A stretch of DNA of 64,000 bases, taken from the sequence record MH752840.1, one strand, 5' to 3'. The translations under genes were made by a program, and so were the position numbers. The stretch comes from Escherichia phage vB_EcoM-Pr121LW. The notes under the pieces are model-generated. The model made no database searches, was not told where the DNA came from, and worked only from the letters and a program-made list of their open reading frames with translations. The first letter of the stretch is position 1. Each line of letters opens with the position of its first letter. Shown one piece after another: positions 33,559-43,177 of this stretch.

Positions 33559-34842
33559 TCATTCAAGCACCTCCCAAGTGTCTGGGTTAACATTTCGGAC
33601 GCAGATACCGACAGGGAATTGGTAGTTGTTGTCTTCTGTCCTTGCTTGGTATTTGAAGGTGACAAACTTGCCGATCATTTCCTGCATCCTGTCATAGCTA
33701 CGCTCCTCGTGCGTGCCTTTCATCTTCATTTTAACAACAACACCTTCCTTGTCAACACAGATAAGAACACCTTCATCATTCTTATCTTTCTCAACGTCAA
33801 TAACTTTCACCTCTGCGTCGTTGAACTTTTTCCATTTCAATGCTTCAGATGTTCGCTGACCGTACTCGTATTTACCGCAGAAATTACGCATGATAGTACC
33901 TTCATATCCTTCGGACATGAATATACCAACAGATTCTTCGCAATGATCAACTGTGTACGCAAGCTCTGCGTCAACAACCTTGATATGATCAAGCATCAGA
34001 GTGGTAACGGTATCCTCTGCATCCATAAGATCCTTGCAGCGTCCAGACTCTGTTTCTGGATCCCACCACACCTTGTCGCTAGGAATATCAAAAATGTGAT
34101 ACTCCAGATCGTAGCTACAGTACCCACCGTAACGCAAATCATCACGAACAGGCTCAACATCGACAGGAATATCTACCTTGTTGAAGTTTTTGTATGTTGA
34201 TAAGCCTGCCTTAATTGCGGCATGACGGCGTTTTTTATCTGCCTCATAGTCTTTATCGATCTCGGCCTGAATCTCTTCCTGTGTGCGCCACCGTTTAGCA
34301 AGAGACACTATTTTCTGCAAAGGAAGACCATGAATGTATAGTTCCCCATCAAGTTGTTTAATACCAGTGGTAGAATGGAAAGAACGAAGTTGCTCTAAAA
34401 GCTTTCCTTGAATAGGGTAGGACTTATTACCACGGGAAATAAATTTAGGCTCACCATTTTGGAAAACAACAAGCAGACGAAGGCCATCTAACTTACGCAA
34501 GATCCAGCAAGGTAATTTAAGTGCCTTGCCACGCTTCAGGTAGTCATGCACCAGCATGGGTAAAAGGTCAACACCCTGCTCGCAATCTTCCATGTTTTCA
34601 ACATACCCCAGACGGACTTGTTTTTCCCACTTGCTGATAGCCTCAAGCTCGGCCTGTTGCTCAGCTGTAGTCTCATTGGCACGACCTACGTTCTTAGGTG
34701 TGCATACCGTCTCTTTGTACTGCAATTTACCGTCAAGCTTGCCAAACTCTACGATAACCTTTTCGCCATCAGTGAATACTTTCCACTGTTGGTAGCTGCC
34801 ATCTTTGTTCAGTGCGTACAGTGTTGTTTTGATTTGATGCAT
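33559..34842 (-). CDS. ATP-dependent DNA ligase
   Basis: KLDGLR (motif I), EGYEGTIMRN (motif IV), LKWKKF (motif V). Confidence 0.8.
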   Translation of the reverse strand: MHQIKTTLYALNKDGSYQQWKVFTDGEKVIVEFGKLDGKLQYKETVCTPKNVGRANETTAEQQAELEAISKWEKQVRLGYVENMEDCEQGVDLLPMLVHDYLKRGKALKLPCWILRKLDGLRLLVVFQNGEPKFISRGNKSYPIQGKLLEQLRSFHSTTGIKQLDGELYIHGLPLQKIVSLAKRWRTQEEIQAEIDKDYEADKKRRHAAIKAGLSTYKNFNKVDIPVDVEPVRDDLRYGGYCSYDLEYHIFDIPSDKVWWDPETESGRCKDLMDAEDTVTTLMLDHIKVVDAELAYTVDHCEESVGIFMSEGYEGTIMRNFCGKYEYGQRTSEALKWKKFNDAEVKVIDVEKDKNDEGVLICVDKEGVVVKMKMKGTHEERSYDRMQEMIGKFVTFKYQARTEDNNYQFPVGICVRNVNPDTWEVLE

Positions 34843-35406: not shown

Positions 35407-35468
35407 AACTAACTACCTCGCTGCATACTTTCCATAATAAGTAAAGCCGGGATTACCCGGCTATGTTG

Positions 35469-36182
35469 TCAAATAGACTCTGTTACATCCTTGAAGCTCG
35501 AAGGCTTCATGATCTTACCTTTACTGTCAAGGAATATGATAACTTTATTACCGTTGTAGAACTCTTCCTTAGCAACAAAACCTTCGTAGCGACCACCAAA
35601 ACGACGCTCAAGATCTTTAATCTCCAACTCGATGAGTTGTTCAGCAGGCATATCTGCACTGGCACCGTGTGAATGCCGTAGATGGTTGATCCGTGCAAAC
35701 TTACTGTCATTAGATTTGAGAACCTTCCGCATCATCCCACACACATCGCCGCGAAGCTGGAACAGCAAAGCTGTTGACAACTCCGCTAAGCGGTAAGCTG
35801 ACGCTCTTTGCTTGGATGTGTTTTTCGCAGCGATCAGTGTATCATAGAACTCACCAATCTTGAACTTAAGACCTCGTGGATTATCAAACAGGTTTGACCA
35901 CTTTTCGTGATTGTCATTAACAAGATAGGCGGCATAACTTGTGACAACGTGAAGATCGCAGGCCTCTTTTAACAGGTGATCTCCACCATCACCTTTCTCC
36001 AGCTCTTCCAAAACCTCATTGAACTCTTCCTCAATGAAGCTAAGCTGTAATTCGAATGGTGTGTATGATTTTTTCACTTTAGCTGCCACACGGTTCCAGT
36101 TTTCCACCCAGTTGGCAGACCAAAGGTAGTTTTCAGGCTGAGACAGTTTTTCCAGGTTGTCGATCAGTTTAGTATTCAGCAT
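35469..36182 (-). CDS. putative MazG-like nucleotide pyrophosphohydrolase
   Basis: FIEEEFNEVLEELEKGD...LLKEACDL resembles the MazG EExxE...D metal-binding helices. Confidence 0.35.
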   Translation of the reverse strand: MLNTKLIDNLEKLSQPENYLWSANWVENWNRVAAKVKKSYTPFELQLSFIEEEFNEVLEELEKGDGGDHLLKEACDLHVVTSYAAYLVNDNHEKWSNLFDNPRGLKFKIGEFYDTLIAAKNTSKQRASAYRLAELSTALLFQLRGDVCGMMRKVLKSNDSKFARINHLRHSHGASADMPAEQLIELEIKDLERRFGGRYEGFVAKEEFYNGNKVIIFLDSKGKIMKPSSFKDVTESI

Positions 36183-36195
36183 TAAAGGTCTCCTT

Positions 36196-36957
36196 TTAAA
36201 GTTCCATAAAGTTTTCTACAGTTTCAATAAATGCTTTATCAGAGAAAGCGTCAACAGCACCGTTAAACCATACAGGGATCCCGCGATCCTCATATTGATA
36301 AAGGTCGCTACGTGAAATGCCACTTCCATCTGCACTCTGCGAGTCATACTTGTTTACAATCAGCAGTTTTGTGCCTTTACAAGTAGCAGGAAACAATTCC
36401 CAGTTAAAATTAATAACTGTGTTAGAACAACCTACCAGGATCACCATATCATTGCTTGTGAGAGATGTCAACAGGTCATACATGTCTGTATACTTAGGAG
36501 CAACCTCACCGAAGAACACTACATTAGGCTTAACCCAGGTATACTTGCCTGTATCTACCTCCGTATATCCGATATTTTTAATTACATCGTTACCTTCAGC
36601 ATCTTCGTAGGTGATTTCAGGCAAATACCCGTGGACATGTAAAATATCTTCATGTTTTACACCAGCACGCTCCAGCAAATCATCTACATTGGTGGTAAGG
36701 TTGATCACACGACCAGACCAGCGGGAATACCACTCAGCGATCCGAAGATGTGCAAGGTTAGGATCAACACTGCCCAGAGCTACACGACGTGCATTGTAAA
36801 AGTCATGCACCTTATAGTAGTTCTTGGCAAAGGTGTGGATGTTGCACACCTCATCGATGCTGAAATTCTCCCACATTGCAGTGCTACCAGATCGGAAAGT
36901 GGGAATACCAGATTCAGCGCTCAAACCGGCACCGGAGATAATAATCAGTCGTCGCAT
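36196..36957 (-). CDS. Sir2/CobB-family NAD-dependent protein, lacking the zinc-binding cysteines
   Basis: GAGLSAESGIPTFR, FYNARR, NLTTNVDDLLERAG, HVHG and VVFFGE motifs in sirtuin order; no CxxC pairs. Confidence 0.7.
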   Translation of the reverse strand: MRRLIIISGAGLSAESGIPTFRSGSTAMWENFSIDEVCNIHTFAKNYYKVHDFYNARRVALGSVDPNLAHLRIAEWYSRWSGRVINLTTNVDDLLERAGVKHEDILHVHGYLPEITYEDAEGNDVIKNIGYTEVDTGKYTWVKPNVVFFGEVAPKYTDMYDLLTSLTSNDMVILVGCSNTVINFNWELFPATCKGTKLLIVNKYDSQSADGSGISRSDLYQYEDRGIPVWFNGAVDAFSDKAFIETVENFMEL

Positions 36958-36965
36958 AAGTGTCC

Positions 36966-37316
36966 TCAGTAGATGTTTTGTTTAATCTCTATTCCAAACT
37001 TCTTGAATGAGTCAGCAGCAAGCATAAATTTACGAGCTGCCGATGGATTAGAAGTATGTACGAAAATCTTCACGTTGTCAATCACTGGAGGCTTACCGAA
37101 TACAAATTTTTCCTCCAACATGGATAGGCAATCGTATCCTTCGAATACTTCTCCTAGGTCGTTGTCCATATGCCACTCAGAAACGCGTCTGTAGAGCTTT
37201 CCCTTATCGTTAATAAAATCCATAAACTCTGAGGAATTCTTCAGCCAAATAGCGTCTGGGAGTCCATAATTTGACGGATCTCTCAAATCATCCAGCCACA
37301 CAATCCACTTCTTCAT
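36966..37316 (-). CDS. hypothetical protein, possibly co-functional with the Sir2-like gene
   Basis: ORF with 4-nt overlap to RNA ligase gene. Confidence 0.35.
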   Translation of the reverse strand: MKKWIVWLDDLRDPSNYGLPDAIWLKNSSEFMDFINDKGKLYRRVSEWHMDNDLGEVFEGYDCLSMLEEKFVFGKPPVIDNVKIFVHTSNPSAARKFMLAADSFKKFGIEIKQNIY

Positions 37317-38248
37317 TGCATATAGTCCTCGTTGTGGAAATAGTAGTCCAGTATCTCACGACGCTCCTGCTCTAATAAGCAATTCCACACATCTTCTGTA
37401 TAGTTGCTACGAATAAATTTTACCATACCGTAAAACTCTTCGTCAACACGTTTAAAGATATCATCATCCCAAATCTTCCAAGCTTTACCCCTCATTACTG
37501 CCTTCCGTGCCAGATAGTATGGAGACTTGATCTTCAGCTGCAGATCATAAGGGTAGTAAGGCTTACGAATCATATACCCTTCACCTCTTGTTTCTGCAGC
37601 TAATTCTTTTGCATAGCTGAACGGAATTTCACGCACAGTGTGAGGACGTTTTGCACCAAGGTATTTGGCAATCCCATCTAAAGCTGCTTCTGGTAGCATT
37701 ATTCCAGAATCATTATATCTGCAACCTATCAAATATGCGCCATGATCTTCCTGAACAATATGCGGATCTGAAGGGTGGCAAATTTCAAACATGAATGTCA
37801 TGTTTTCATTGCCCATAACCTTCTTGATAAGATCTAAATTACCACATTGCTCCTTGATGGTTTCTTTTGCGAGGTTACAATATGGGGAATCAAGAGACCC
37901 GGTTGTTGAGAACAATAGTTCACCTTTATGAGATGATACCACACCGAGGAATCCGTTCTTTTTCTCTACCGCAGTAACAAGTTTACTGTCCGGTAGGTTG
38001 GTGGAGTTTTCTCCTAAGTTGAATACTTTTGTGAAAGGCCATGCCACAACATTCCCCTCATTGCCAACAACAATACCTCGGCACTCCAGTAAACGCGGAG
38101 ACAAATGCCACAGATCGTTGTAGAATACTTTTCTGGCATATTTATAGATCTTTAATCCAAGATCTGGATAATACCGACTGGTTACAAGACCTTTGTCTAC
38201 TAGGTCATCTGCATTAAAATACTTCATCATACGTTCCTCATTTGTCAT
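37313..38248 (-). CDS. RNA ligase (Rnl2-like nucleotidyltransferase)
   Basis: EKKNGF (motif I-like KxNG), EGYMIRKP (motif IV), LKIKSPYY (motif V). Confidence 0.5.
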   Translation of the reverse strand: MTNEERMMKYFNADDLVDKGLVTSRYYPDLGLKIYKYARKVFYNDLWHLSPRLLECRGIVVGNEGNVVAWPFTKVFNLGENSTNLPDSKLVTAVEKKNGFLGVVSSHKGELLFSTTGSLDSPYCNLAKETIKEQCGNLDLIKKVMGNENMTFMFEICHPSDPHIVQEDHGAYLIGCRYNDSGIMLPEAALDGIAKYLGAKRPHTVREIPFSYAKELAAETRGEGYMIRKPYYPYDLQLKIKSPYYLARKAVMRGKAWKIWDDDIFKRVDEEFYGMVKFIRSNYTEDVWNCLLEQERREILDYYFHNEDYMQ

Positions 38249-38291
38249 TTTGTCAGTCTATCCTGCCACACAAATAACCTAGTGTCAACAC

Positions 38292-38320
38292 TTGAAATTA
38301 ACAAAACAGTTAGGTATACT
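38292..38320 (+). promoter_or_regulatory. sigma70-like promoter TTGAAA-17-TATACT
   Basis: Hexamers at 38292-38297 and 38315-38320 in the divergent intergenic region. Confidence 0.5.
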
Positions 38321-38348
38321 ATCATTAAAATTAAAACGGAGGATTGCT

Positions 38349-38759
38349 ATGTCTAAAATGCTATATATCGTGCGTGGTCTGCCAGGGTCTGGCAAATCAA
38401 CACTGGCAAATGCGCTATCTTTAGAAGGTCTGTATCCACATTTTGAGAATGACATGTTTTGGTATGACGATGACGGCAATTACAACTGGGATGCAAGTAA
38501 AGTAACACTCGCAGCAAAATGGTGCAAAGATAACGTAGAAGATATGATGCGTATGGGATACGACCGTATCGTGGTAAGTAATACGTTTACAAAAGAAAAA
38601 CATGTGCAGGAATATGTTGACATGGCAATCAGTCATGGGTATAGTTATACCGTAATCGTGGTTGAAAACCGCCACGGTAATAAAAGCATTCATGATGTTC
38701 CAGACAAGGTTGTGGATCGTATGGAACGCCAGCTTAAAAACTGCATTAAACTTAAATGA
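38349..38759 (+). CDS. P-loop kinase, polynucleotide-kinase-like
   Basis: GGAGG RBS 6 nt before ATG; Walker A GLPGSGKST; track ORF starts at a TTG that is the promoter -35. Confidence 0.5.
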   Translation: MSKMLYIVRGLPGSGKSTLANALSLEGLYPHFENDMFWYDDDGNYNWDASKVTLAAKWCKDNVEDMMRMGYDRIVVSNTFTKEKHVQEYVDMAISHGYSYTVIVVENRHGNKSIHDVPDKVVDRMERQLKNCIKLK

Positions 38760-38766
38760 GGAATGT

Positions 38767-39321
38767 ATGAAATACTTTGTAACAAGCGATACGCACTTTC
38801 TCCACCAGCGGGTCATGGAGTTTGATTCATGTCAAAAACACAGATCTCAATATGATCACAATCTTGACAGTATGAATGCGGGAATCATCACCGAGTGGAA
38901 CTCCGTTGTGTCACCTGCAGACACTGTGTTCCACCTGGGAGATATTGCGTGCACTAATGATAAGAATATCAACAACTTACTTCCAGATATTCTAAATATG
39001 TTGAACGGACATATTATTCTTGTTCGTGGCAACCATGACACAAGGACGACTGTCAGAATTATGAAAGAGTTCGGTCATGAGGTTGTAGATTATTACGAGC
39101 TTCGCCACAACAAGAATTTGATCTGTATGAGCCATTACCAGTTTGCAAAGTGGAACAGAAAGCCTCACGGATCAGTCCAACTGTTCGGTCATGCTCACGG
39201 AACCACACAACAGTTGTTTGGCAGGCAGCTTGATGTCGGTTGGGATGTGTGGGGGAGACTCTTACCATTAGAAGAGGCATACCGTATTGCAATGAGTTTT
39301 GATATTGACAGCAGGGAGTAA
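38767..39321 (+). CDS. calcineurin-like metallophosphoesterase
   Basis: DTHF (motif I), GDIACTND (II), GNHD (III), GHAH. Confidence 0.7.
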   Translation: MKYFVTSDTHFLHQRVMEFDSCQKHRSQYDHNLDSMNAGIITEWNSVVSPADTVFHLGDIACTNDKNINNLLPDILNMLNGHIILVRGNHDTRTTVRIMKEFGHEVVDYYELRHNKNLICMSHYQFAKWNRKPHGSVQLFGHAHGTTQQLFGRQLDVGWDVWGRLLPLEEAYRIAMSFDIDSRE

Positions 39322-39368
39322 TCCCTGCTATTTTAAAGAAAATTGCCACACAAGGAGAATCAGGAGAT

Positions 39369-39719
39369 ATGAAAGATGGGGATAAGCTGCTATATCTTAA
39401 AGTCCCCCTTGAAATACTATCTATGTCAAAAGTTTTGAATGACACAACTGGGGAGGTTGTTGTTCTTGACTTGTATGACAAGATTGTATACTGCTACCTG
39501 CACAACTGGTATAAGCTTGGAGGAAATTCCCGCTTCACACCAAGCACAAGGAAAATTGCAGCAGATGTTGGGATAAAGAAAACAAAAGCAGCAGCGTGCG
39601 TTAAAACTTTAGAATGTGCAGGAGTGGTTGAAACATCCACACAAGGGAGAGGTAAAAGATGCACATTTTCCAAAGTTTTGCCACCAGAAGAAGTTATTCG
39701 AATGTCAACAACTGGTTAG
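39369..39719 (+). CDS. putative DNA-binding protein (HTH)
   Basis: TRKIAADVGIKKTKAAACVKTLECAGVVE helix-turn-helix-like segment; immediately upstream of palindrome array. Confidence 0.4.
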   Translation: MKDGDKLLYLKVPLEILSMSKVLNDTTGEVVVLDLYDKIVYCYLHNWYKLGGNSRFTPSTRKIAADVGIKKTKAAACVKTLECAGVVETSTQGRGKRCTFSKVLPPEEVIRMSTTG

Positions 39720-42236: not shown

Positions 42237-42311
42237 GCCCTGTTAGCTTAGTGGATAAAGCAGCGGCCTTCTAAGCCGTTGACACTGGTTCGAGTCCAGT
42301 ACGGGGTGCCA
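42237..42311 (+). tRNA. tRNA-Arg (anticodon TCT)
   Basis: Manual cloverleaf: 7-bp acceptor stem, D-stem GCTT/AAGC, anticodon loop CTTCTAA, T-loop TTCGAGT, encoded CCA. Confidence 0.75.
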
Positions 42312-42442
42312 AGTTCTTTTTAATGTAGCTTACTTTAGCAGAGTAAATCTTCGGCAAGTGGCGGTAACCACTTTTACCGATACCTCATAGTTAGTGGTGA
42401 GAACACTAGCTATTTTAAAAAGAATTTAAATATTAGTATTTA

Positions 42443-42530
42443 GGTGAGTTAATTCCGTAGGGGTAGCGGGGCAGACTGTAAATCTGTTATCATTGCGATT
42501 CGGGTGGTTCGACTCCATCACTCACCACCA
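42443..42530 (+). tRNA. tRNA-Tyr (anticodon GTA), long variable arm
   Basis: Perfect 7-bp acceptor stem GGTGAGT/ACTCACC, anticodon arm GCAGA-CTGTAAA-TCTGT, T-loop TTCGACT, CCA; 88 nt. Confidence 0.7.
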
Positions 42531-42644
42531 AATTTATATTTTTAAATGCATAAATTATACAGATAATGGCATTGATATTTATCGTCGTTTATACTAGTCA
42601 CTAACTGCTCGAAAATCAGTGTCATTATCAGTATTGTTTATAAA

Positions 42645-42735
42645 AGAGGGTAGGGAGCAATGGTGCTCAAGCGGTCTTGAAAACCGTCCCGTTGAGGATG
42701 ACTCGATGATGGTTCGATTCCATTACCCTCTGCCA
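42645..42735 (+). tRNA. tRNA-Ser (anticodon TGA), long variable arm
   Basis: Perfect 7-bp acceptor stem AGAGGGT/ACCCTCT, anticodon loop CTTGAAA, T-loop TTCGATT, CCA; 91 nt. Confidence 0.7.
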
Positions 42736-42833
42736 TATTGTTGACCTTGTAATTAAGCGAAAGCCGGAAGCAGAACCGGATTATCAAATGTTACAGTCGT
42801 CATCGCCGACTAGCAACATTGTCAACATACTGA

Positions 42834-42932
42834 GCTAGGTAAGCCCTTTGGCAAGGGCGAGGATTTTTAATCCTGAAAATAGACGAGGTAGTCGTTGAAT
42901 ACATAGGTGGTTCGATTCCACCACCTAGCACC
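42834..42932 (+). tRNA. atypical tRNA-like gene (anticodon loop TTTTTAA, possibly Lys-TTT), ~30-nt extra region, no full CCA
   Basis: Acceptor GCTAGGT/ACCTAGC, D-arm GCCC-TTTGGCAA-GGGC, T-arm GGTGG-TTCGATT-CCACC are clean; anticodon stem and variable region are irregular. Confidence 0.35.
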
Positions 42933-42937
42933 TTTTT

Positions 42938-43013
42938 GCTGATGTAGCACAATTGGTAGTGCAATTGATTTGTAATCAATAGGTTGCAGGTTCAAGTCCT
43001 GCCATCAGCACCA
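42938..43013 (+). tRNA. tRNA-Thr (anticodon TGT)
   Basis: Acceptor GCTGATG/CATCAGC, D-stem GCAC/GTGC, anticodon arm ATTGA-TTTGTAA-TCAAT, T-loop TTCAAGT, CCA. Confidence 0.8.
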
Positions 43014-43014
43014 T

Positions 43015-43089
43015 GGCCCTGTAGCTGGAAGGTTCAAGCAAGCGACTCATAATCGCCAGACGGTGGTTCAATTCCACCCAGGGCCACCA
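43015..43089 (+). tRNA. tRNA-Met or tRNA-Ile2 (anticodon CAT), elongator type
   Basis: Acceptor GGCCCTG/CAGGGCC with G1-C72 pair, anticodon loop CTCATAA, T-arm GGTGG-TTCAATT-CCACC, CCA. Confidence 0.7.
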
Positions 43090-43100
43090 AATAGTAAATA

Positions 43101-43177
43101 CTCCGCGTAGCTCAGCTTGGTAGAGCGCCTGATTTGGGATCAGGAGGTCGAGTGTTCGAATCACTCCGTGGAGACCA
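43101..43177 (+). tRNA. tRNA-Pro (anticodon TGG)
   Basis: C1-G72 acceptor pair as in bacterial tRNA-Pro, D-stem GCTC/GAGC, anticodon arm CCTGA-TTTGGGA-TCAGG, T-loop TTCGAAT, CCA. Confidence 0.8.

Follow-up and report, generated by a model that had tools for sequence, protein, structure and literature searches.

The tRNA repair carried out by bacteriophage T4 Pnkp and Rnl1 counters the anticodon nuclease PrrC. Defences that cleave transfer RNA (tRNA) are common and include PrrC, RloC, PARIS, retrons, Cas13 and HEPN or Schlafen nucleases, and to our knowledge most of the phage answers to them that have been characterised are either replacement tRNAs or the one pair of Pnkp and Rnl1 in T4. Here we analyse a 64,000-nucleotide stretch of DNA from Escherichia phage vB_EcoM-Pr121LW (MH752840.1; hereafter the window), in which the gene of an ATP-dependent RNA ligase is transcribed divergently from those of a stand-alone P-loop kinase and a calcineurin-like metallophosphoesterase (the phosphatase). 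We consider it likely that the genes at this locus form a phage module for the healing and sealing of RNA ends. The logic is that of T4, combining a predicted 5'-kinase, a predicted 3'-end phosphatase and an Rnl1-family ligase, and the phage ligase and kinase have the catalytic residues of Rnl1 and the fold of Pnk, respectively. In contrast to T4, the healing enzymes are two small proteins: the kinase is a single domain of 136 residues with no fused haloacid dehalogenase (HAD; DxDxT) phosphatase such as T4 Pnkp has, and the phosphatase is a separate binuclear metallophosphoesterase. The kinase also lacks an equivalent of T4 Pnk Arg38, and the ligase lacks an equivalent of T4 Rnl1 Lys119 together with most of the C-terminal tRNA-binding domain.

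Two further systems bear comparison. Bacterial Pnkp of Clostridium thermocellum (CthPnkp) and the Pnkp-Hen1 and Pnkp1-Rnl-Hen1 assemblies perform the same three chemistries, including 3'-end healing by a metallophosphoesterase, and the bacterial Pnkp kinase folds (4jt2, 4gp6, 4xrp) are the closest to the phage kinase. The phage, however, distributes over three polypeptides what the bacterial enzyme holds in one, its ligase is of the Rnl1/Trl1 type and its phosphatase resembles Aquifex aeolicus aq_1665; no Hen1 methyltransferase is annotated in 16.5 kb of the Murica or 50 kb of the EmilHeitz relative, a result that covers existing annotation of these regions and not a genome-wide profile search. 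Fungal and plant Trl1, a ligase-kinase-cyclic phosphodiesterase (LIG-KIN-CPD) protein that works with Tpt1, provides the second comparison, in that Trl1-LIG is among the top structural matches of the phage ligase and kinase-ligase fusions occur in relatives. Unlike Trl1 with Tpt1, the module contains neither a 2H-type CPD domain nor Tpt1/KptA, but its cREC (cyclic-phosphate-processing receiver-like) and Sir2-family proteins could mimic the CPD and Tpt1 route, as predicted previously (PMC9503650).

The same neighbourhood has already been described by Iyer, Burroughs, Anantharaman & Aravind (2022; Viruses 14:1977, PMC9503650, section 3.7.3), who classed it as a type 2 sirtuin-centred neighbourhood whose prototypes are Escherichia phage V5 and Proteus phage Mydo, interpreted it as an NAD+-using RNA-repair system with a sirtuin acting like KptA, and termed the kinase a 'nucleotide kinase'. 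The phage analysed here belongs to the genus of V5 (Vequintavirus murica and Vequintavirus V5 are two species within it) and has the same set of genes (T4-like tRNA ligase, cREC, kinase, MazG-type protein, sirtuin and calcineurin-like phosphoesterase), and nothing essential differs; in the type 2 definition the calcineurin-like phosphoesterase is optional. A jumbo-phage paper by the same group reports that calcineurin-like phosphatases stand in for HAD ones in some phage RNA-repair sets (PMC7824862), and tRNA ends healed by CthPnkp, whose healing is of the metallophosphoesterase type, are sealed by T4 Rnl1 in vitro (Keppetipola et al., 2007; PMC1920235). Because these three papers precede the present work, neither the module, known as a computational prediction, nor metallophosphatase-based healing is new. 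The initial annotation of this DNA, which had proposed a modular countermeasure to anticodon nucleases, was sound in its pathway logic and in recognising a metallophosphatase rather than a HAD enzyme, but it misplaced the ligase family, listed an incomplete gene set and, in view of the Iyer et al. description, overstated the novelty.

The window comes from a Vequintavirus, an rV5-like E. coli phage. By megablast, positions 37000-39500 are 100% identical to Escherichia phage Murica (NC_041871.1 / KT001917.1) and match more than 100 other Vequintavirus (rV5-like) genomes at 92-98% identity; GenBank product names in the same phage group are 'RNA ligase (and tail attachment protein)', 'ATPase / polynucleotide kinase' and 'phosphoesterase'. 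Six contiguous genes (35469-39321) form two divergent units, one consisting of ligase, cREC, Sir2 and MazG-like genes and the other of kinase and phosphatase (Table 1). Within the units, the phosphatase ATG lies 7 nt past the kinase stop, the cREC start and the ligase stop share 4 nt (ATGA), and the Sir2 gene begins 8 nt downstream of cREC, with the MazG-like gene last in the operon. A GGAGG ribosome-binding site precedes the kinase ATG, which is the start used by both GenBank records (Murica and EmilHeitz). A sigma-70-like promoter was found by consensus scan ahead of the kinase, while on the minus strand of this intergenic region the same scan gave no comparable match that could serve the ligase operon. 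The three open reading frames (ORFs) named in the initial annotation and all the ligase, kinase and phosphatase motifs quoted there are present, and in profile searches the three proteins score above the curated Pfam cut-offs. Its description of a trio holds in so far as the three genes are functionally linked by co-occurrence and fusion, but here they are part of a six-gene module.

The evidence that carries the proposed function is comparative. The survey covered 85 loci, made up of 80 viral contigs with ligase relatives (35-49% identity), each taken with ±8 kb, two GenBank regions that the DNA search had returned and three further contigs reached through ligase homologues; profiles were run against the six-frame ORFs, and grouping the ligases at 80% identity gave 53 clusters. 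Of these 53 clusters, 49 have the kinase within 8 kb of the ligase (adjacent in 42), 47 have the phosphatase (adjacent in 35) and 45 have both together, whereas the MazG-like gene is present in 9 and cREC and Sir2 in 7 each. Anchored on the ligase, the survey reverses the emphasis of Iyer et al. (PMC9503650), with kinase and phosphatase near-constant and sirtuin and cREC occasional. Gene order varies by lineage (phosphatase-ligase-kinase, kinase-ligase-phosphatase or ligase-phosphatase-kinase) and the genes often overlap. The divergent arrangement reported initially is real, with ligase and kinase facing away from each other across 100 bp, but it is peculiar to Vequintavirus (loci L001, L002 and L006), the genes being co-directional elsewhere. 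At 12 loci (2 clusters; L040, L044-L047, L050-L052, L054, L055, L057 and L058, all metagenomic viral contigs) the kinase (residues 13-142) and ligase (155-428) are fused in one ORF of ~430 residues, with no phosphatase within 8 kb and a DNA ligase usually 1-4 kb downstream, and phrog_8238 joins an N-terminal kinase to a C-terminal ligase. Linkage that persists through rearrangement, together with the fusions, constitutes strong comparative evidence for a shared pathway. Because the genes co-occur, change order and fuse, we infer with good support that the locus heals and seals RNA ends, and the enzymatic activities, the RNA substrate and the role in counter-defence are to be read as predictions of this kind.

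An apparent phosphatase-ligase fusion (locus L088, 4115-5005) was rejected. The first ~51 phosphatase residues are in frame with a ligase that lacks its first ~56, and the ORF is probably a deletion or assembly chimera, not a Rosetta-stone fusion. An HNH endonuclease gene lies just upstream of it.

The three-enzyme core is common to many phages of 90-150 kb. A tblastn search recovered the ligase family from 655 of 50,697 records of sequenced phage isolates, distributed by host over Escherichia (198), Pseudomonas (175), Vibrio (83), Streptomyces (48), Klebsiella (36), Acinetobacter (24) and others.

Sequence profiles and a structural model place the ligase in the Rnl1/Trl1 type of RNA ligases. 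Its only Pfam match is RNA_lig_T4_1 (PF09511), a profile that it covers in full (positions 1-227 of 227; E=7e-15, 55.9 bits where the cut-off is 28.3), its best PHROG is the T4 gp63 family (phrog_562, E=9e-66), and its translation contains EKKNGF (the KxNG motif), GEGYMIR and LKIKS, with the lysine nucleophile, K96, within KKNG. A single-sequence search against PDB sequences gave no match; a profile built from 36 homologues (40-49% identity) gave T4 Rnl1 as the sole match (2c5u, 9do4, 5tt6; E about 2e-12). Invariant in the 36 homologues are K96-x-N98-G99, F154-E155, E223-G224 and K239/K241, which represent nucleotidyltransferase motifs I, III, IV and V, and the Rnl1-specific upstream residues R57, K74 and F76. 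In the profile alignment R57, K74, F76, K96 and E155 correspond to T4 Rnl1 R54, K75, F77, K99 and E159, while E223-G224 and K239/K241 correspond to E227-G228 and K240/K242 (T4 residue numbers verified on the printed alignment), and these T4 residues are reportedly essential according to mutagenesis by the Shuman laboratory. For the AlphaFold2 model (predicted local distance difference test, pLDDT, 90) the top Foldseek matches are fungal Trl1-LIG (6n0t, 8rbj, 9qw7) and T4 Rnl1 (E about 1e-12, template modelling (TM) score 0.60-0.66), with the Rnl3, Rnl5 and Rnl2 families scoring below them. Pfam, the PDB profile and Foldseek agree on an RNA ligase, as opposed to a DNA ligase or capping enzyme, in keeping with the initial annotation. 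The Rnl2-like assignment made there was incorrect: PF09414 gives no match at E<=0.01, no Rnl2 appears in the PDB profile search, and T4 Rnl2 ranks 29th among the Foldseek matches with a TM score of 0.40. Nor does the protein reach the T4 RnlA equivalog (NCBIfam TIGR02308), scoring 37.7 bits against a cut-off of 242.25.

The placement in phrog_562 with T4 gp63 and the identical GenBank product name would also fit a ligase whose main importance, as with T4 gp63, is in attaching tail fibres, with unrelated early genes for neighbours. We regard this as extremely improbable, given that all the ligase catalytic residues are invariant in the 36 homologues, that a structural role leaves the conserved linkage and the kinase fusion unexplained, and that the gene lies within a nucleotide-metabolism block and not among tail genes. 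The ligase start is annotated at M1 in Murica (311 residues) and at M7 in EmilHeitz (305 residues); GAGGA stands immediately upstream of M7/M8 and homologues start at the position of residue ~12, and translation probably begins at M7 or M8 (~38230).

The kinase matches Pfam AAA_33 (42.5 bits against a cut-off of 27, E=1e-10) and phrog_505, 'polynucleotide kinase' (E=5e-10), and belongs to a very large family, of at least 7,989 matches, whose members are P-loop proteins of ~130 residues that stand alone. Invariant in the family are R9, the P-loop GLPGSGKST (G10-x4-G15-K16-S17-T18), D35, VSNTF, E83, ENRHG and H115, of which D35, the putative general base, aligns with the first Asp (the catalytic Asp) of Pnkp1 'RDDFR'. 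The longest PDB matches of the family profile are Pnkp1 (4xrp), T4 Pnk (1ly1, 1ltq), PSTK and the CthPnkp kinase (4gp7). The AlphaFold2 model (pLDDT 88) gives its best TM scores, 0.73-0.78, with CthPnkp kinase, T4 Pnk, Pnkp1 and PSTK (4jt2, 4gp6, 1ly1, 2ia5, 4xrp), compared with 0.45-0.60 for UMP-CMP, adenylate, shikimate and gluconate kinases. On the evidence of the model, the fold is that of a 5'-OH polynucleotide kinase, closer to these enzymes than to nucleotide kinases, which differs from the label of Iyer et al. (PMC9503650) and agrees with the initial annotation, where a kinase not of the nucleotide-kinase type had been proposed.

The 'nucleotide kinase' label is one of the points in favour of a different function, in which the small enzymes would act on nucleotides or on signals derived from NAD or ADP-ribose, degrading or modifying host immune messengers, and the ligase would function separately. 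Sir2, cREC and MazG-type domains are tied to NAD/ADP-ribose chemistry in phages (PMC9503650), and NAPRTase and Macro genes are found near the module in some relatives. However, the core trio is present in 45 of the 53 clusters, far exceeding Sir2 and cREC, the best structural matches of the kinase are polynucleotide kinases, and at some loci kinase and RNA ligase form a single protein, all of which make this alternative very unlikely.

The phosphatase scores above the cut-offs of both Metallophos_2 (29.1 bits against 27) and Metallophos (27.1 against 21.5) and matches phrog_547 (E=2e-51). Its translation contains SDTHF, LGDIA and GNHD, and D8, H10, GD58-59, GNH88-90, H123, GH141-142 and H144 are invariant among 20 homologues from ligase loci, so that all the metal-ligand motifs of binuclear metallophosphoesterases (DxH, GD, GNH(D/E), H and GHxH) are kept. 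The nearest solved relative is aq_1665 (1xm7; E=4e-24 over the first 120 residues), which has all of the motifs in common with the phage protein but, as an uncharacterised structural-genomics protein, lends the phage phosphatase no function by homology. The phosphatase profile also lists GpdQ-like phosphohydrolases and YfcE among PDB sequences at E<=1. The protein is a predicted 2',3'-cyclic phosphodiesterase / 3'-phosphatase, an activity on RNA ends that is suggested by the gene context.

In the proposed reaction sequence, the metallophosphatase would remove a 2',3'-cyclic or terminal phosphate to leave a 3'-OH, the kinase would phosphorylate the 5'-OH, and the ligase, adenylylated on K96, would activate the 5'-phosphate and seal the break. 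The module most likely repairs RNA cut by host nucleases. In Vequintavirus a second route may be available through the other genes of the ligase operon. The cREC protein matches Pfam cREC_REC (PF20274; 54.5 bits against a cut-off of 27, E=2e-14), the Sir2-family protein matches Pfam SIR2 (E=7e-28) and phrog_2162 (E=1.5e-108), and the MazG-like protein matches phrog_671 (E=1.3e-21) and has no Pfam match. A role for cREC in RNA repair has been predicted (PMC7824862, PMC9503650) and a KptA-like removal of 2'-phosphate proposed for Sir2 (PMC9503650). Following Iyer et al. (2022), cREC would open the cyclic phosphate to a 2'-phosphate, which Sir2 would strip with NAD+.

Table 1. Features of the RNA-repair locus and its surroundings in the window
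Feature	Position	Strand	Remarks
ATP-dependent DNA ligase	33559-34842		2.5 kb from the module; terminator in between
Intrinsic terminator closing the ligase-cREC-Sir2-MazG unit	35445-35462	-	Terminator scan; also in the Murica annotation
MazG-like nucleotide pyrophosphohydrolase, 237 residues	35469-36182	-	phrog_671 and GenBank product name
Sir2-family protein, 253 residues	36196-36957	-	Pfam SIR2, phrog_2162
cREC protein, 116 residues	36966-37316	-	PF20274
RNA ligase, Rnl1/Trl1 clade, ATP-dependent	37313-38248	-	311 residues as longest ORF
Divergent intergenic region between ligase and kinase, 100 bp	38249-38348		
Sigma-70-like promoter of the kinase-phosphatase unit	38292-38320	+	TTGAAA-17-TATACT; consensus scan
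P-loop kinase, stand-alone, 136 residues	38349-38759	+	ORF opens at 38292, real ATG at 38349
Binuclear metallophosphoesterase (calcineurin-like), 184 residues	38767-39321	+	ORF opens at 38662, real ATG at 38767
Terminator ending the kinase-phosphatase unit	39311-39328	+	Murica annotation (locus L001, 9312-9329); a simple terminator scan of the window failed to recover this GenBank-annotated site
Seven tRNA genes	42237-43177	+	Arg-UCU, Tyr-GUA, Ser-UGA, a 99-nt gene with UUU-type loop, Thr-UGU, CAU, Pro-UGG

Several observations weigh against RNA end healing and sealing as the function of the locus. Firstly, a DNA ligase gene is found within 8 kb of the RNA ligase in 25 of the 53 clusters, and in the window it lies close to the module (Table 1). 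The kinase and metallophosphatase might on this account heal DNA ends for the ATP-dependent DNA ligase in replication or repair, the RNA ligase being a mere neighbour. T4 Pnk-type kinases act on DNA too, and the phosphatase shows a weak match (E=2.5e-4) to the ligase-associated DNA-damage endonuclease PdeM. The PdeM score, however, reaches 20.5 bits where the cut-off is 150, the module and the DNA ligase have a terminator between them, and the genes that kinase and phosphatase abut or overlap are those of the RNA ligase, not the DNA ligase. In addition, it is to the RNA ligase that the kinase is fused at the 12 loci described above, and the loci combining this fusion with a DNA ligase have no phosphatase. 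Service to the DNA ligase is thus decidedly unlikely.

Secondly, the sequence features that would define an RNA substrate are partly missing. Arg38 of T4 Pnk is essential and binds a polynucleotide phosphate, yet the kinase family has W, F or Y at this position, three residues past the catalytic Asp; its place might be taken by R9, an invariant residue ahead of the P-loop, and by R108 of ENRHG. The ligase carries an invariant Thr (T116; 'STTGS') at the position of T4 Rnl1 Lys119 ('KSKGS'), its alignment to T4 Rnl1 stops at T4 residue ~249, and only ~66 helical residues follow motif V, compared with the 120-residue tRNA-specificity domain of T4. Because the Arg38 and Lys119 equivalents are absent and the ligase C-terminus is short, the predicted substrate specificity is tentative. 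Thirdly, the phosphatase profile did not detect CthPnkp or lambda phosphatase among PDB sequences at E<=1, a set expected to include a CthPnkp phosphatase-domain chain. Fourthly, kinase-anchored look-ups found the kinase family at loci that lack the ligase, either beside the phosphatase only (L086) or solitary (L087), and since the family is not exclusive to ligase loci we do not count the presence of the kinase alone as evidence of RNA repair. Finally, our literature search found no experimental study of a Vequintavirus ligase, kinase or phosphatase, and retron Eco2 and the HEPN retron Kva2 cleave tRNA yet defend E. coli from Vequintavirinae (PMC12916289, bioRxiv 10.64898/2026.07.14.738597), so that any protection afforded by the module is not general.

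The initial annotation had placed the locus beside seven tRNA genes ~3 kb away. The cluster is indeed there, 2.9 kb from the phosphatase stop and outside both operons, with six tRNAs detected by ARAGORN and tRNA-Tyr (42443-42527) added by Rfam; tRNA genes are annotated in Murica as well. Across the survey, however, the association between ligase and tRNA genes is loose and suggestive only: 39 of the 85 loci have tRNA genes in the 8 kb around the ligase, a count with no baseline, at distances of 2-8 kb and never adjacent, and tRNA adjacency was rejected as a defining trait for this reason. The tRNA genes bear on a further possibility, that the module serves the phage's own RNA metabolism, whether in tRNA maturation, splicing, quality control (including that of a 99-nt tRNA in the cluster) or the processing of other transcripts. 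The structural similarity of the ligase to fungal tRNA-splicing Trl1, as near as that to T4 Rnl1, would be in line with such a role, as would the presence of tRNA genes near many of the ligases and the unusual 99-nt gene itself. Against it, neither an intron-like interruption nor a splicing endonuclease was observed, the fold of the 99-nt tRNA is a cloverleaf whose variable arm is long, and over half of the loci lack tRNA genes in their flanks. On balance a role in the phage's own RNA metabolism is unlikely, and repair of RNA cut by host nucleases is preferred.

The 99-nt tRNA-like gene (42834-42932) has been annotated inconsistently. ARAGORN gives it a 4-base anticodon, Murica labels it 'tRNA-OTHER Asp|Gly' and EmilHeitz 'tRNA-Lys (AAA)', while visual inspection allows an anticodon loop UUUUUAA, with anticodon UUU; the variable arm of the cloverleaf is ~29 nt long with a 5-bp stem. 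PrrC and PARIS both attack tRNA-Lys(UUU), and the gene could therefore encode a candidate nuclease-resistant substitute for it.

Two other features of the cluster were observed. A 128-nt insertion between tRNA-Arg and tRNA-Tyr (42314-42441), unannotated and not in Murica or EmilHeitz, is 99% identical in JEP1, SYGMH1, ECP26 and others, with 16 of 223 matching records covering the query; it folds into a multi-branched structure with a closing stem of 11 bp (z = -3.8) and matches no Rfam family at gathering score. The window is thus distinct from the Murica record. The tRNA-Tyr(GUA) gene (42443-42530), missed by ARAGORN in the window and found by it in Murica, differs from the Murica gene by compensatory acceptor-stem changes (GGGGAG/CTCCCC to GGTGAG/CTCACC) along with other substitutions.

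Directly 3' of the phosphatase lies a gene for a 116-residue helix-turn-helix protein (39369-39719; DUF6945 / HTH_36), named variously 'replication initiation protein', 'DNA-binding protein' and 'putative transcriptional regulator'. The megablast matches to positions 37000-39500 also include 18 'Campylobacter phage' records (host Campylobacter jejuni) with 96-97% identity to E. coli vequintaviruses. Among the matches listed, the majority of these records are unannotated; they look like mislabelled or contaminated deposits.

It is conceivable, though doubtful, that Vequintavirus combines two novel repair chemistries in parallel, namely a minimal three-protein heal-and-seal pathway and the NAD+ route of cREC and Sir2. 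If so, the ~130-residue kinase would be the smallest polynucleotide kinase known and would bind RNA ends without an Arg38-type contact, while cREC with the sirtuin would remove the junction 2'-phosphate independently of Tpt1, a new reaction for a sirtuin. If the predicted activities of the three core enzymes are confirmed, the module would be the most widespread phage RNA-repair cassette and a source of very small end-healing enzymes.

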